DNA of 64,000 bases from Burkholderiales bacterium (GCA_036381055.1 DASVDO010000017.1:20025-84024), one strand, 5' to 3'; counted from the first letter of the stretch, positions 15,032 to 40,201 are shown. Numbers and translations are program-made. The notes: generated by a model from the letters alone, not told the origin.

Positions 15032-15034
<3 letters not shown>

Positions 15035-15055
15035 TTCGGGGACGGAGCCCGAACT
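15032..15055 (+). repeat. REP-like hairpin repeat, left end of module 1
   Basis: TAATTCGGGGACGGAGCCCGAACT; internal hairpin TTCGGG/CCCGAA; exact reverse complement of 15457-15480; begins with ettA stop TAA. Confidence 0.9.
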
Positions 15056-15078
15056 CCGAACGCTGAGTCAGTCCTTCT

Positions 15079-15396
15079 GTGCGCATCTGGTATCCACTAG
15101 CTTTCGTTGCCGGCGGCACAATCGGGGCTGCGGCGCTGTCTTTTTTGGCGCAGGAACAATTCGAAGTACTCGTCTTCGTCTCGTTCTTTGCCGCAATCCT
15201 GCTTGGATGGGTGACCTTGTTTGAAAACCGGGCAGTGCGGTATGCAGGACTTTTCAGCAGGTGGGGGCTCTTTCGGCCGGTCTGGCGGCAATGGCTATCG
15301 CCTGCTCGTCCATCATGGTCCATCGTCGCGCTTTTGTTTGTTGTCGGTCTCGTCGGGGGAGGGTGCGTTCGTATCCTTCTGCTATCTGAGATCTAA
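15079..15396 (+). CDS. Orphan hydrophobic protein, gene-cassette-like cargo (may be 5'-truncated)
   Basis: 105-aa ORF with about three hydrophobic segments; ~57% GC by hand count over 15061-15420; stop TAA lies inside ATCTAAC. Confidence 0.55.
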   Translation: MRIWYPLAFVAGGTIGAAALSFLAQEQFEVLVFVSFFAAILLGWVTLFENRAVRYAGLFSRWGLFRPVWRQWLSPARPSWSIVALLFVVGLVGGGCVRILLLSEI

Positions 15397-15456
15397 CAGG
15401 GCGTTGGTACGGACACGCGGCGAGCCGACAAGTCGATTCAGGCGACGTACCGCGGA
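15391..15456 (+). other. Truncated integron attC-like site
   Basis: RYYYAAC inverse core ATCTAAC, 5-nt spacer, GTTGGTACGGAC left arm, inner stem CGCGG/CCGCG; no GTTRRRY core because the REP begins at 15457. Confidence 0.5.
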
Positions 15457-15480
15457 AGTTCGGGCTCCGTCCCCGAATTA
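15457..15480 (-). repeat. REP-like hairpin repeat, right end of module 1
   Basis: AGTTCGGGCTCCGTCCCCGAATTA, perfect 24-bp inverse of 15032-15055; contains the cls stop TAA. Confidence 0.9.
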
Positions 15481-32188: not shown

Positions 32189-32203
32189 GATTCGGGGTCA
32201 GGG
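32189..32203 (+). repeat. Partial solo copy of the REP-like repeat
   Basis: GATTCGGGGTCAGGG, 15/15 identical to 38701-38715, intergenic between GST and MFS. Confidence 0.5.
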
Positions 32204-32216
32204 CTGCGAGCTCCGG

Positions 32217-36851: not shown

Positions 36852-37704
36852 GATGCCGCGCGCGCGCGTGCGGCGCCGCCGGCGGGTGCGCTGGGTGTGG
36901 GTGGTGCCGCTGGTCGCCGTGGCGGTGGCGGCGTGGCTGGTGTTCCAGCGCATCGAGCAGCGCGGCCCGGAGATCACCGTGACCTTCGAGGACGGCGCGG
37001 CGCTGCGCGTCGGCCAGACGCCGCTGCGCTATCGCGGCGTGCAGATCGGCGAGGTGTCGGGCGTGGGCCTGTCCGAGGACGAGCAGCACGCCGTGGTGCG
37101 CATCCGCCTGCACCGCGACGCGGGGCGGATCGCGCGCGAAGGCTCGCGCTTCTGGATCGTGCGCCCGCGCGTCGGCTGGGGCAGCTTCAGCGGGCTGAAC
37201 ACCGTGCTGTCGGGACCCGAGATCCAGGTGATCCCGGGCAGGCCCGACGCGCCGCGGCAGACCGAGTTTGCCGGGCTCGAGGCGCCGCCGGCGGCCATCG
37301 AAGGCGGCCTGCACATCGTGCTGCGCGCCGAGCGGCCGAAGATGCGCCCCGACGCGCCGGTGTACTACCGCGGCGTCGAGGTCGGCACGGTGCAGAAGCT
37401 CGACCTCGCGCCGAACGCGCTCTCGGCCGACGTGCACGTGATCATCTACCCGCGCTTCGCCGCCCTGGTGCGCGAAGGCTCGGCGTTCTGGGACGTGAGC
37501 GGCGTGGCGGTGAAGGGCGGCATCTTCAAGGGCATGCAGGTCGAGCTCGAGTCGTTGCGCTCGTTCATCACCGGCGGCGTCGAGTTCGCGACGCCGCCCG
37601 GCACGCGGCGCGCCAAGCCCGGGACCGTGTTCTTCCTCTACGACCAGCCCAAGCCGGAGTGGCTCGCCTGGGCGCCGAAAATTCCCATCCCCGGGGAAAA
37701 GTAG
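36838..37704 (+). CDS. pqiB: PqiB/MlaD family MCE protein (two MCE domains)
   Basis: WVWVVPLVA, GPEITVTF, LRYRGVQIGEV, FWIVRPR, PVYYRGVEVGTV, FITGGVEFATP. Confidence 0.8.
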   Translation: MSGDEMPRARVRRRRRVRWVWVVPLVAVAVAAWLVFQRIEQRGPEITVTFEDGAALRVGQTPLRYRGVQIGEVSGVGLSEDEQHAVVRIRLHRDAGRIAREGSRFWIVRPRVGWGSFSGLNTVLSGPEIQVIPGRPDAPRQTEFAGLEAPPAAIEGGLHIVLRAERPKMRPDAPVYYRGVEVGTVQKLDLAPNALSADVHVIIYPRFAALVREGSAFWDVSGVAVKGGIFKGMQVELESLRSFITGGVEFATPPGTRRAKPGTVFFLYDQPKPEWLAWAPKIPIPGEK

Positions 37705-37745
37705 TTAGGCTTCGCCCCGTGGCGCAGGCGGCGAAGAGATCGGGC

Positions 37746-38702
37746 ATGAAGCGCGCGCCGGCGCGGCGCCGGCCGCGCAAGGCGAAAGCGCACTCGCGCG
37801 GCCGCGCCGCCGCCGAGTGCCGCGTCGACACGCTGTCGCCCGAAGCCGATCAGGCGAGGATCCGCGTCGAGAACGAGGGCGGCTACGTGCTCGGCTGCTA
37901 CGCCGATCCGCTCGGCGGGCAGCCGGTGCTGGTGGCGGTGCTGCCGATCGACGCGGTGGAGCCGACGCCTTTCCAGCGCGACCTGTCGCAGGCGCACCAC
38001 CGCAAGCTCGCCGACGTGCTCGACCGCACCGGCATCTTCCTCGATCCGATCATCGCGGTCAGCGCGCCGGAGAAGGGCTTCTGGACGCCGAACGGGCGCC
38101 ACCGCCTGGAGGCGATGCGCCGGCTCGGCGCGAGGGCGATCACCGCGCTGGTGGTGCCCAAGCGCGAGATCGCGTGGCAGATCCTCGCCCTCAACACCGA
38201 GAAGGCGCACAACCTGCGCGAGCGCGCGCTCGAGGTGATTCGCATCTACCGCGGGCTGATCGACGAAGACGGGCGGCGCGCCGAGTCGTCGTTCGCGTTC
38301 TACCTGGAGGAGGCCTCGCTCGTGACGATCGGCGTGTGCTACGAGCGCAACCCGAAGTTCGCCGGCGCGGCCTACCACCCGATCGTGCGCCGCCTGCTCG
38401 CCTTCAGCGACGAGCCCGTGGCGAAGGCGATCAAGGCGCACGAGCGCTACGCCGCTCTGCTGCTCGAGCTCGACGAGCGCGTCAACGAGGTGATCAAGAA
38501 GCTGAAGGCGCGCGGCTTCACCAGCCCGTACCTGCGCGCCTTCGTCGTCGCGCGCATCAACCCGCTGCGCTGGATCCAGGGCGAGCCGCCGCCGCTCGAG
38601 GGCGTGCTCGAGACCATGCGCGAGCGCGCCGCGCGCTTCAACACCGACAAGGTGCGCCAGGAGGATCTCGCCGCAGCCGGCGGCCCGGCCGACGAGGACT
38701 GA
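37746..38702 (+). CDS. ParB N-terminal (ParB/Srx) domain protein
   Basis: PTPFQRDLS, FLDPII, TPNGRHRL, ALNTEKAHNLRER. Confidence 0.8.
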   Translation: MKRAPARRRPRKAKAHSRGRAAAECRVDTLSPEADQARIRVENEGGYVLGCYADPLGGQPVLVAVLPIDAVEPTPFQRDLSQAHHRKLADVLDRTGIFLDPIIAVSAPEKGFWTPNGRHRLEAMRRLGARAITALVVPKREIAWQILALNTEKAHNLRERALEVIRIYRGLIDEDGRRAESSFAFYLEEASLVTIGVCYERNPKFAGAAYHPIVRRLLAFSDEPVAKAIKAHERYAALLLELDERVNEVIKKLKARGFTSPYLRAFVVARINPLRWIQGEPPPLEGVLETMRERAARFNTDKVRQEDLAAAGGPADED

Positions 38703-38724
38703 TTCGGGGTCAGGGTCGTAATTC
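38700..38724 (+). repeat. REP-like repeat, left end of RAYT module
   Basis: TGATTCGGGGTCAGGGTCGTAATTC; perfect inverse of 39559-39583; begins with the ParB-gene stop TGA. Confidence 0.9.
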
Positions 38725-38759
38725 GTCAACCGGCCGGGCGCCTCGCGCGTTGTGCAGTC

Positions 38760-39316
38760 ATGGCGAGGCATCCGCGAGTCACTCTACCCGGCGTAGCGCT
38801 GCACGTCCGGCAGCGAGGCGTCGACGGGACGGCGTGCTTTCGCGAGGAGGCCGACAGGCTCGTTTATCTGTCTGCCCTGCGCGAGCTCCTCGGGAGGTCG
38901 CAGTGCGCCTTGCACGCGTACTGCCTGATGACTAACCACGGCACGGTCGCACGGGGACGTTGTGGGACGGCCGGTTTCGCTCGTGCCTGGTCGAATCGCG
39001 CGAATACGTGCTCGCGTGCCACCGCTACACAGAGCGCGATCCGGTCCGTGCCGGCATGGTTGCCTGTCCTTCGGCGTACCGCTGGTCGAGCTTCAAGGCG
39101 AACAGCGGTGAAGCCGAGGCTGCATTCGTTTCCGCGCTGCGTGAAGCGACCGACGGCGGTCTGCCGATGGTCGGACAGGCGCTGCGTTCCCGGCTGGAAG
39201 CCATGGGATGGCGCGTGGAGAAGGGCAAGCCGGGAAGGCGATCGGCGCCGACGCCCGATACGGCGCCGCTCAACGCCGAGCCGCAGTTCTCAGCGCGGCG
39301 AGAATTACGACCCTGA
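38760..39316 (+). pseudogene. REP-associated tyrosine transposase (RAYT, HUH/Y1) pseudogene
   Basis: Frame 1 MARHPRVTLPG..HVRQRG...HAYCLMTNH; frameshift near 38940 into HGRTGTLWDGRFRSCLV...RYTERDPVRAGMV....YRWSS; the second His of HUH and the following helix are deleted. Confidence 0.85.
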
Positions 39317-39325
39317 CCCCGATTC
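39302..39325 (-). repeat. REP-like repeat, internal copy
   Basis: GAATTACGACCCTGACCCCGATTC; 21-bp perfect inverse of 38704-38724; direct repeat of 39559-39582 with one mismatch. Confidence 0.9.
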
Positions 39326-39562
39326 CGCCTCGCAGGCGGCGGCTTCGCTGCGACAGCGCTGCTGGCAGGCCTGGTTCTCCGGGGCCTCGGTGGTGGTCTT
39401 GCGGCAATTGGCGATGCAGGCGTTGAGCGCGGCGCGGCAGCTCGGCGGCGCTTCGCTCTCGGCGCCGAGGTACTGCTGGTAGACGTAGTAGCCGATCACG
39501 GCGAGGGCGATCAGCACGATCAGCGTGCCGACCGCTCCGCCGCGCTGGCTGCGAGGAAGAAT
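39305..39562 (-). CDS. Small pilin-like / Cys-rich membrane-anchored protein; start uncertain
   Basis: Frame reads ILPRSQRG-GAVGTLIVLIALAVIGYYVY...C...C...C...C...C...C...ESGSGS*; stop supplied by the internal REP; ATT 39562 or GTG 39517. Confidence 0.6.
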   Translation of the reverse strand: MLPRSQRGGAVGTLIVLIALAVIGYYVYQQYLGAESEAPPSCRAALNACIANCRKTTTEAPENQACQQRCRSEAAACEAESGSGS

Positions 39563-39583
39563 TACGACCCTGACCCCGAATCA
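39559..39583 (-). repeat. REP-like repeat, right end of RAYT module
   Basis: GAATTACGACCCTGACCCCGAATCA, 25/25 inverse of 38700-38724; contains the GST stop TGA. Confidence 0.9.
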
Positions 39584-40201
39584 GAGCTTGAGGGCGCGCT
39601 GTACGCCGGGGCGGGCGCCGATCTCGGCGTCCCAGCGCTCGAGGTTGGCCATGCCGGCGACGAGCTCGGGGAAGGCGCCCCTGGTGCGCCAGTAGCCGGC
39701 GTAGAGCGAGAGGTCGGCGATGGTCACCTCGTCGCCGGCGGCGTACTTGTGCTTCGCCAGCTTGTCGTCCCAGACCTTGAAGTAGTTCTTCAGCCGCCCC
39801 TTGAACATGTCGGCCGACGCCGCGTGCGCCGCGGGCTCCTTGGCGCGCACGCAGGCGTTCACCGCGCCGAACATCGGCGTGATGTCGGTCGAGGCGCTCA
39901 TGTAGGCCTCGAGCATCGCCGCGCGCTTCGCCGGGTCCTTCGGGACCAGCCGGCCGGCCTTCTCGGCGCAGTACATGAGGATGGCGCTCGACTGGCTGAT
40001 CGTGAGCTTCTGCCCGCCGGGCCCGTCGTGGTCGACGATCACCGGGATCTGGCCGTTCGGGTTGAGCGCCAGGAACTGCGGCGTCTTGTGCTCGCCCTTG
40101 GCGAGGTCGATGGGATGCCAGTTGTACTTGAGCTCGCATTCCTCGAGCGCGATGCGCGCGCGCATGCCGTTCGAGGTGCCCGCGGCGTAGAGATCGATCA
40201 T
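39581..40201 (-). CDS. Glutathione S-transferase family (YfcG-like)
   Basis: LYAAGTSNG, NPNGQIPVIVD, SQSSAILMY, TIADLS. Confidence 0.9.
   Translation of the reverse strand: MIDLYAAGTSNGMRARIALEECELKYNWHPIDLAKGEHKTPQFLALNPNGQIPVIVDHDGPGGQKLTISQSSAILMYCAEKAGRLVPKDPAKRAAMLEAYMSASTDITPMFGAVNACVRAKEPAAHAASADMFKGRLKNYFKVWDDKLAKHKYAAGDEVTIADLSLYAGYWRTRGAFPELVAGMANLERWDAEIGARPGVQRALKL

Follow-up and report, generated by a model that had tools for sequence, protein, structure and literature searches.

How did a perfect 25-bp inverted repeat come to bracket a gene remnant and a small gene between two convergent genes, and what became of the enzyme that the remnant once encoded? The locus in question occupies positions 38700-39583 of a 64,000-nucleotide stretch of DNA, hereafter the window, from Burkholderiales bacterium (GCA_036381055.1, DASVDO010000017.1:20025-84024). 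The source is a 3.1-Mb soil metagenome-assembled genome (MAG) with 71% G+C, 103 contigs and 98% completeness, and the organism falls in a genus-level group of uncultured soil Burkholderiales. An initial annotation described a decaying gene of the REP-associated tyrosine transposase (RAYT) family bounded by repetitive extragenic palindromic (REP) sequences. Our analysis indicates that the locus is very probably the broken cognate RAYT of one REP family, here named REP-A, which stands at an old inherited site and was killed by two deletions, leaving REP-A orphaned.

Two deletions in a RAYT gene

The inverted repeat is exact, as first reported: TGATTCGGGGTCAGGGTCGTAATTC at 38700-38724 is the reverse complement of 39559-39583. 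The third, internal copy is also present; it points the same way as the right-hand copy and has one base different (96% identity). A search with the 19-mer core, allowing up to three mismatches, gave three matches in the window and none in 100 shuffles. The order proposed for the locus, with a forward REP on the left, the RAYT, an inverted REP, a microgene and a second inverted REP, proved correct, the microgene lying on the minus strand (Table 1).

All of the RAYT motifs claimed for the remnant (HVRQRG, YCLMTNH, TLWDGRF, RY..RDPVRAG and YRWSS) were recovered in translation. Frame 2 reads MARHPRV..HVRQRG..HAYCLMTNHG, beginning MARHPRVTLPGVALHVRQRG, and after a shift the reading continues in frame 1 as TGTLWDGRF..CHRYTERDPVRAG..YRWSS, beginning TGTLWDGRFRSCLVESREYVLACHRYTERDPVRAG. 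Neither the separate fragments nor the read-through product had a Pfam match; the read-through product was recognized by the NCBIfam model REP_Tyr_transpos (NF047646) with 28.7 bits (E=1e-6), a score lowered by the deletions. The intact syntenic orthologue of a close relative (L065) matches Pfam Y1_Tnp (PF01797) with 55.5 bits for a cut-off of 23, reaches 72.6 bits with NF047646 for a cut-off of 80, and aligns with E. coli TnpA-REP (PDB 4ER8) at E=0.003.

The deletions were measured by protein alignment and by DNA alignments to a RAYT of another relative (G017) and to the closest syntenic orthologues, L065 and L064. Deletion 1 removed 91 nt at AACCA[CG]GCACGG and causes a frameshift; it takes out (V/I)H(L/M)L..RRY..NRR, including the second histidine of the HUH motif, and the next ~30 residues. 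The loss of this histidine through a frameshifting deletion had been recognized from the start, but the CACG microhomology invoked for the junction shrinks to a 2-nt CG in the orthologue alignments. Deletion 2, initially only suspected, is confirmed by the same alignments as an in-frame loss of 99 nt between GEA and EAAF, following ...ANSG. The outcome does not correspond to a functional enzyme: the first histidine (TNH) is kept, but deletion 1 took away the second and moved the reading out of frame. The tyrosine motif is kept as RYTERDP, in which the invariant N of YIExNP has become D. Since the remnant retains 44 of the 48 positions with a conservation of at least 93% in the 32 intact RAYTs compared, its decay by point mutation is still light. 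Judged from these sequence features, the locus is a pseudogene of the RAYT family and not a working member.

Short-read soil MAGs such as this one could contain assembly or binning artefacts, in which case the RAYT would really be intact. This possibility is extremely improbable given that a 236-nt stretch spanning both junctions recurs in soil metagenome contigs from four studies, which contain 1.00, 0.88, 0.88 and 0.82 of its sampled 31-mers, and that for a 1.3-kb stretch of the locus two of those metagenomes reach 0.98 and 0.95. The recurrence of the broken form in four studies argues that the deletions are not a one-off assembly artefact.

A probably inherited site in different states

The neighbourhood MCE-ParB-RAYT-microgene-GST-Dgk-YqjD, in which the RAYT is framed by inverted REPs and the microgene and the glutathione S-transferase (GST) gene are on the minus strand, is common to four related loci (L064, L065, L099 and L108), all with an intact RAYT. 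Elsewhere the same site is found in other states. In L111 the RAYT is independently degenerate, with internal deletions and a truncated right REP (L111 5059-5640). L105 and L122 hold a solo REP only, ParB and the microgene abut in L127 with nothing between them, and a major facilitator superfamily (MFS) transporter gene takes the place in L126 and L140. Finally, in L106 and L130 the microgene is encoded on the opposite strand, where it overlaps the stop codon of ParB and is followed by an intact RAYT. The ParB-GST junction thus varies among relatives, as the initial annotation anticipated, but what varies is the state of the RAYT and the presence of REP insertions, not the number of REP-gene units.

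In a maximum-likelihood tree, the window remnant is sister to the syntenic gene of L065 (92/91), on a longer branch. Another candidate orthologue, G006:C191, was dropped when the addition of closer genomes made the syntenic L065 gene the sister. The A-like RAYT of G006 is at a different position, and the syntenic site in that genome is empty, with no relic. Independent decay is also seen in G013, whose A-type RAYT (G013:C12:1741-2423) has a TGA and a frame break and lies amid REP-A doublets.

Two further arrangements were observed around the site. In many relatives (L073, L075, L079-L081, L083, L084, L086, L089, L131 and others), a GST gene (64-77% identical) is located between MCE and the ParB-like gene and not on the downstream side of ParB, so that the neighbourhood appears to have been rearranged more than once. 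L100 (1649-5892) is a mirror image around the ParB-like gene, reading YqjD(-), Dgk(+), GST(+), microgene(+), RAYT(-), ParB(+), RAYT(+), microgene(-); it represents a genuine inverted duplication or else a chimera that arose during assembly at the REPs.

A large and uniform repeat family

The REP of the locus is not confined to it. REP-A (AATTCGGGGTCAGGGTCGTAATTC) is present in some 60-80 copies genome-wide, with 61 copies at up to five mismatches, 71 with a 16-nt core and 79 with a looser core, and none of the other four REP families of the genome is as large or as uniform; its master-sequence share (0.38) is the highest of the five. The unit is exactly 24 nt long with sharp borders, and its flanks are not conserved. 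A T precedes 19 of 70 copies, so that a TAA or TGA abuts TTCGGGG, and 16 of these 19 close open reading frames (ORFs) of more than 100 codons. When REP3 is compared with the empty site in L065, the inserted DNA begins at TTCGGGG, directly behind the host TGA, which suggests that the leading RA is derived from the target.

Inverted REP pairs flank the RAYTs of many relatives, and their sequences grade into one another: GGGGTCAGGTTCAC in L065, GGGGTCAGAGCCC in L064, GGGGACAGGTACG in L099, CCGTACCAAGTACG in L108 and CCGTACCCGGTACG in G017. In the genome studied here, REP-A forms about five doublets among ~70 copies, and for around three-quarters of the copies not even a relic of a partner is seen within 120 nt. 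The same REP occurs in inverted doublets with a palindromic spacer for 83-90% of the copies in G013, G020 and G021 (55-90% when G015 and others are included), and the doublet of these congeners folds at -34.7 kcal/mol. The death of the RAYT was considered as the cause of the singlets and rejected, because singlets likewise predominate in G047 and G048, the nearest relatives with an intact RAYT.

A degenerate REP-A copy (GATTCGGGGTCAGGGCTGCGAGCTC), diverged in its right half, is found at 32189-32212 of the window. Four composite repeats were also detected, each an inverted REP-A pair with a copy of a second family, REP-B, in its spacer (A> B< A<), at G000:C25:3729-3793, C26:23194-23292, C65:25996-26088 and C67:22437-22536.

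Proposed loss of the RAYT and orphaning of REP-A

We propose that the gene encoded an HUH/Y1 transposase of the IS200-like superfamily and was present in a single copy, inherited vertically at an ancestral site with the ParB-like gene on one side and the microgene on the other. Like all other RAYTs of the genus, it would have been framed by inverted copies of its own REP. As long as it was active, the enzyme presumably cleaved REP DNA in single-stranded form and joined it again, as expected from its family, thereby spreading REP-A over the chromosome. New copies would often have been set directly after an RA dinucleotide, and hence many against TAA or TGA stops. The two deletions, of 91 nt with a frameshift and 99 nt in frame, would then have inactivated the RAYT in this lineage, and insertion of REP3 between the microgene and the GST stop would have produced the three-REP layout and displaced the ancestral start codon of the microgene. 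Given that the orphaned REP-A population is large and uniform, loss of the RAYT would be recent relative to REP decay. This uniformity points to a recent burst after which the gene was lost, in line with the conflict scenario described in the literature.

Several observations weigh against this interpretation. Intact orthologues score slightly below the curated NCBIfam cut-off. The positionally equivalent RAYT of L064 groups apart from the window remnant and L065 in the tree, with weak support, and replacement of the RAYT at the site is thus possible. A lone REP-A unit is a poor palindrome that folds at only -0.1 to -0.4 kcal/mol (z = 0 to -2), compared with -5.5 kcal/mol for REP-B and -3.4 kcal/mol for the REP of G017, and REP-A is mostly a singlet here, whereas more distant relatives have hairpin doublets. 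That the transposase acted on REP-A is presumed from the family, and a second intact A-type RAYT may sit in a gap of the 103-contig assembly.

Paralogues, REP-B and the module at 15032-15480

Besides its single A-type locus, the genome contains three intact RAYT paralogues, located on C90, C9 and C56 and 231-249 aa long, as well as a second broken RAYT on C2. Inspection of the flanking repeats shows that each of the three intact genes is bounded by an inverted pair of its own REP. The REP of the C90 paralogue, GGGGTCAGAGCAATTTTCC, shares a GGGGTCAG core with REP-A. Together with the fact that REP-A is the most numerous and uniform family despite its dead gene, this shared core could indicate that REP-A is not orphaned but moved in trans by an intact paralogue such as C90, the loss of the cognate gene being without consequence. 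We regard this as unlikely, because RAYT-REP pairing is specific wherever it is readable in the genus and the C90 protein is on a very long branch in the tree. Moreover, a recent loss explains the uniformity equally well, and the remnant still keeps nearly all of its conserved residues (44/48). Similarly doubtful is a scheme in which REP-A in this subclade moves as a ~22-nt singlet (TTCGGGG...GTAATTC), placed after RA with a preference for TAA or TGA, while a paralogous RAYT continues to propagate the 60-80 copies in trans. If true, it would represent a mode of REP mobilization apart from the REPIN model, together with rescue across families.

The reading of REP-A as orphaned has a parallel in the same genome. 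The module at 15032-15480 is bounded by inverted copies of REP-B (AATTCGGGGACGGAGCCCGAA), which is different from REP-A, exists in 37-45 copies, often as doublets, and frames its own RAYT lineage in relatives (loci L044 and L048; G003 and G014). The RAYT remnant on C2 (G000:C2:150-700, minus strand) sits between truncated REP-B copies: its left end is fused to one of them (TAGTTCGGGACGG joined to CGTTTATCTC) and on the right it stops at another. It lacks the first ~34 codons and the central TLWEGRF..NPVRAG block. The master-sequence share of REP-B is 0.18 as compared to 0.38 for REP-A, and this greater divergence fits an older loss of the REP-B RAYT. The proposal that the locus at 38700-39583 represents the enzyme family behind the module at 15032-15480 therefore holds at the level of the family but not for the locus itself, since the module uses REP-B, which has its own RAYT on C2.

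A resident microgene and a separately inserted REP

The microgene is an ORF of 70 codons on the minus strand between REP2 and REP3. Aligned over 12 species, its product has a basic N-terminus, a hydrophobic helix ending in GYY, an EAP motif and six invariant cysteines arranged as PPSC-x6-C-x3-C-x12-C-x3-C-x6-C. The last six residues and the stop codon derive from REP2. Upstream of the GTG at 39517, homologous in-frame codons run to REP3 without any ATG, GTG or TTG, and REP3 has displaced the region that matches the start codon of the relatives' microgene. REP3 itself is an insertion of ~27 nt that is absent from the two closest relatives, L064 and L065. A third REP is also found in the same spacer in L108, where it belongs to that genome's own family, and in L099, where it belongs to another family, indicating that REPs have landed in the spacer more than once and that it is not an inherited element of an array.

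The microgene was found at the junction in 14 related loci, whether with REPs and RAYT (L064, L065, L099 and L108), with one REP (L105 and L122) or with none (L127). In the two flipped cases (L106 3247-3480 and L130 2652-2885), it is on the other side of the RAYT, and its ATG overlaps the ParB stop (TGATG). A single recombination between inverted REPs was rejected as the origin of this flip (G017, G044), as it would have flipped the RAYT too and there is no REP between ParB and the microgene. Judged from the alignment and from this distribution, the microgene is a conserved resident gene encoding a putative membrane-anchored six-cysteine protein, not cargo.

This result bears on the initial suggestion that the locus grew by the addition of REP-plus-gene units in the manner of a cassette array. 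The REP-gene-REP-gene-REP layout is real, the junction differs among relatives, and the module at 15032-15480 provides a second small gene between two REPs. However, the microgene is constant at the junction with or without REPs, including in the REP-less L127 and the single-REP L105 and L122; it is translationally coupled to ParB in two species; the closest relatives have RAYT and microgene without REP3, which is a separate insertion; differing genes in REP-delimited slots were never seen in relatives; and neither an integrase nor an attC-like site is involved. Because the microgene is resident irrespective of REPs, a REP-plus-gene cassette is ruled out by the comparison, and we give very little credence to such accretion.

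The perfect 25-bp repeat, located exactly at the stop codons of both convergent genes, could alternatively mark the terminal inverted repeats of a single composite or insertion sequence (IS)-like mobile element that brought both RAYT and microgene into the ParB-GST gap. Such an element is highly improbable. The 24-nt unit occurs ~60-80 times, mostly alone, whereas the 0.9-kb unit has no second copy in the genome; L064 and L065 have RAYT and microgene without the right-hand terminal copy; and the microgene persists at the site where the RAYT is absent. A broken RAYT with its own flanking REPs, next to a resident gene and a separate REP insertion, remains the interpretation that we favour.

Other features of the locus

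The RAYT pseudogene is preceded by a leader motif that is shared across the genus. GTCAAC-N15-18-CGTT is found at about -41 and -17 from the ATG in 34 of 35 RAYT genes, the exception being the C90 paralogue, which has GTAAC instead; the 5' regions examined include window 38725-38751, L033-L062, L064, L065, L099, L108 and L130. Genome-wide, the motif has 23 matches versus 2 for a reversed control. GTCAAC-N17-CGTT is a possible candidate promoter, whose shape recalls extracytoplasmic function (ECF)-type promoters, with AAC at -35 and CGT at -10. Scanning the locus for sigma-70 promoters gave no hit. One of the 23 matches of the motif is located upstream of a YraN-like gene (C6:55316).

REP copies are in close contact with the ends of genes at this locus. 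The TGA of the ParB-like gene (38700-38702), of which orthologues with 63-86% identity are found in 80 loci, overlaps the outer end of REP1, and REP2 provides stop codons for the RAYT remnant and the microgene alike. The GST stop and REP3 together form a 9-pair hairpin followed by CGTAATTCTT (window 39567-39587, minus strand), which is weakly terminator-like; it is the only terminator-like site found in 38500-39800, for 0.6 expected by chance.

Table 1. Coordinates of the features found at and around the RAYT locus, counted from the first nucleotide of the window
Feature	Coordinates	Strand	Remarks
ParB/Noc-like gene	37701..38702	+	weak domain match: Pfam ParB_N E=0.076, NCBIfam noc E=0.0019
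REP1, REP-A copy GATTCGGGGTCAGGGTCGTAATTC	38701..38724	+	with T38700 makes the 25-bp inverted repeat against REP3
RAYT leader motif, GTCAAC (38725-30), 17 nt, CGTT (38748-51)	38725..38751	+	conserved, at fixed distance to ATG
RAYT pseudogene, N-terminal fragment (MARHPRV...YCLMTNH)	38760..38938	+	terminates at deletion 1
Deletion 1 junction	38938..38941	.	91 nt missing relative to L065, L064 and G017
RAYT pseudogene, C-terminal fragment, other frame (TGTLWDGRF..RYTERDPVRAG..YRWSS...)	38941..39316	+	TGA stop within REP2
Deletion 2 junction	39108..39109	.	99 nt (33 codons) missing, in frame
REP2, internal REP-A copy	39302..39325	-	one mismatch to REP1 and REP3
Microgene, putative transmembrane-helix and six-Cys protein	39305..39556	-	conserved; listed ORF start GTG 39517
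REP3, REP-A copy in microgene-GST spacer	39559..39582	-	abuts GST TGA stop (39581-39583)
Glutathione S-transferase gene	39581..40201	-	Pfam GST_N/GST_C, E down to 5e-15; convergent with ParB-like gene

Comparison with known systems

The locus and its repeats resemble the REPIN-RAYT systems of Pseudomonas and Enterobacteria (Bertels and Rainey 2011, PMC3116915), in which a single-copy Y1/HUH transposase is accompanied by inverted copies of a repeat dispersed tens of times, each RAYT paralogue has one REP family, and the gene keeps the same chromosomal position across related species. Unlike in these systems, the window gene is dead, the repeat occurs, both here and in the nearest relatives, mostly as a 24-nt singlet that hardly pairs with itself, and proteins of this family have ~100 extra C-terminal residues past the Y1_Tnp domain. 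The match of the intact orthologue to E. coli TnpA-REP (YafM) covers the HUH and Tyr region, but identity is low, the E. coli protein has 165 aa as compared to ~240 aa, and activity has been shown for the E. coli protein while being putative for the family described here. With IS200/IS605 TnpA the family shares the Pfam Y1_Tnp domain, and insertion guided by a short target motif is plausible for REP-A (the RA dinucleotide). Unlike IS200/IS605 elements, however, the gene is not multi-copy, has no IS ends and no TnpB, and is syntenic across species; the NCBIfam IS200 model gives the intact orthologue 22 bits for a cut-off of 55.

Loss of RAYT function has precedents. A frameshifted RAYT in Neisseria gonorrhoeae, RAYT-less strains of E. 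coli and P. chlororaphis, and decaying REPINs have been described (Bertels and Rainey, preprint, doi 10.1101/2021.07.10.451892), and the pattern of vertical inheritance, fixed position and repeated loss reported for RAYTs elsewhere (preprint 10.1101/2021.07.10.451892) matches that of the window site. As in those cases, RAYT function was lost within a lineage, leaving repeats without an enzyme, and loss is recurrent among relatives. Unlike in N. gonorrhoeae, the loss occurred by two deletions and not by a point frameshift, and unlike the decaying REPINs, REP-A shows no decay yet; REP-B, with its remnant on C2, corresponds to a later, decayed stage. There is no new mechanism here: the locus represents a known kind of domesticated transposase gene, consistent with published scenarios of RAYT loss.

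Its value is as a natural series that illustrates the published life-cycle model of REPIN-RAYT systems in soil Burkholderiales MAGs, a group that lacks cultured members. Four states can be compared at one syntenic site across species, namely an intact RAYT, a freshly broken one, a relic in the form of a solo REP, and an empty site, and one genome contains two orphaned REP families, a uniform REP-A with a lightly damaged gene and a diverged REP-B with a heavily deleted one. The locus also illustrates how REP insertions affect their neighbours, by supplying stop codons and displacing the start codon of the microgene.

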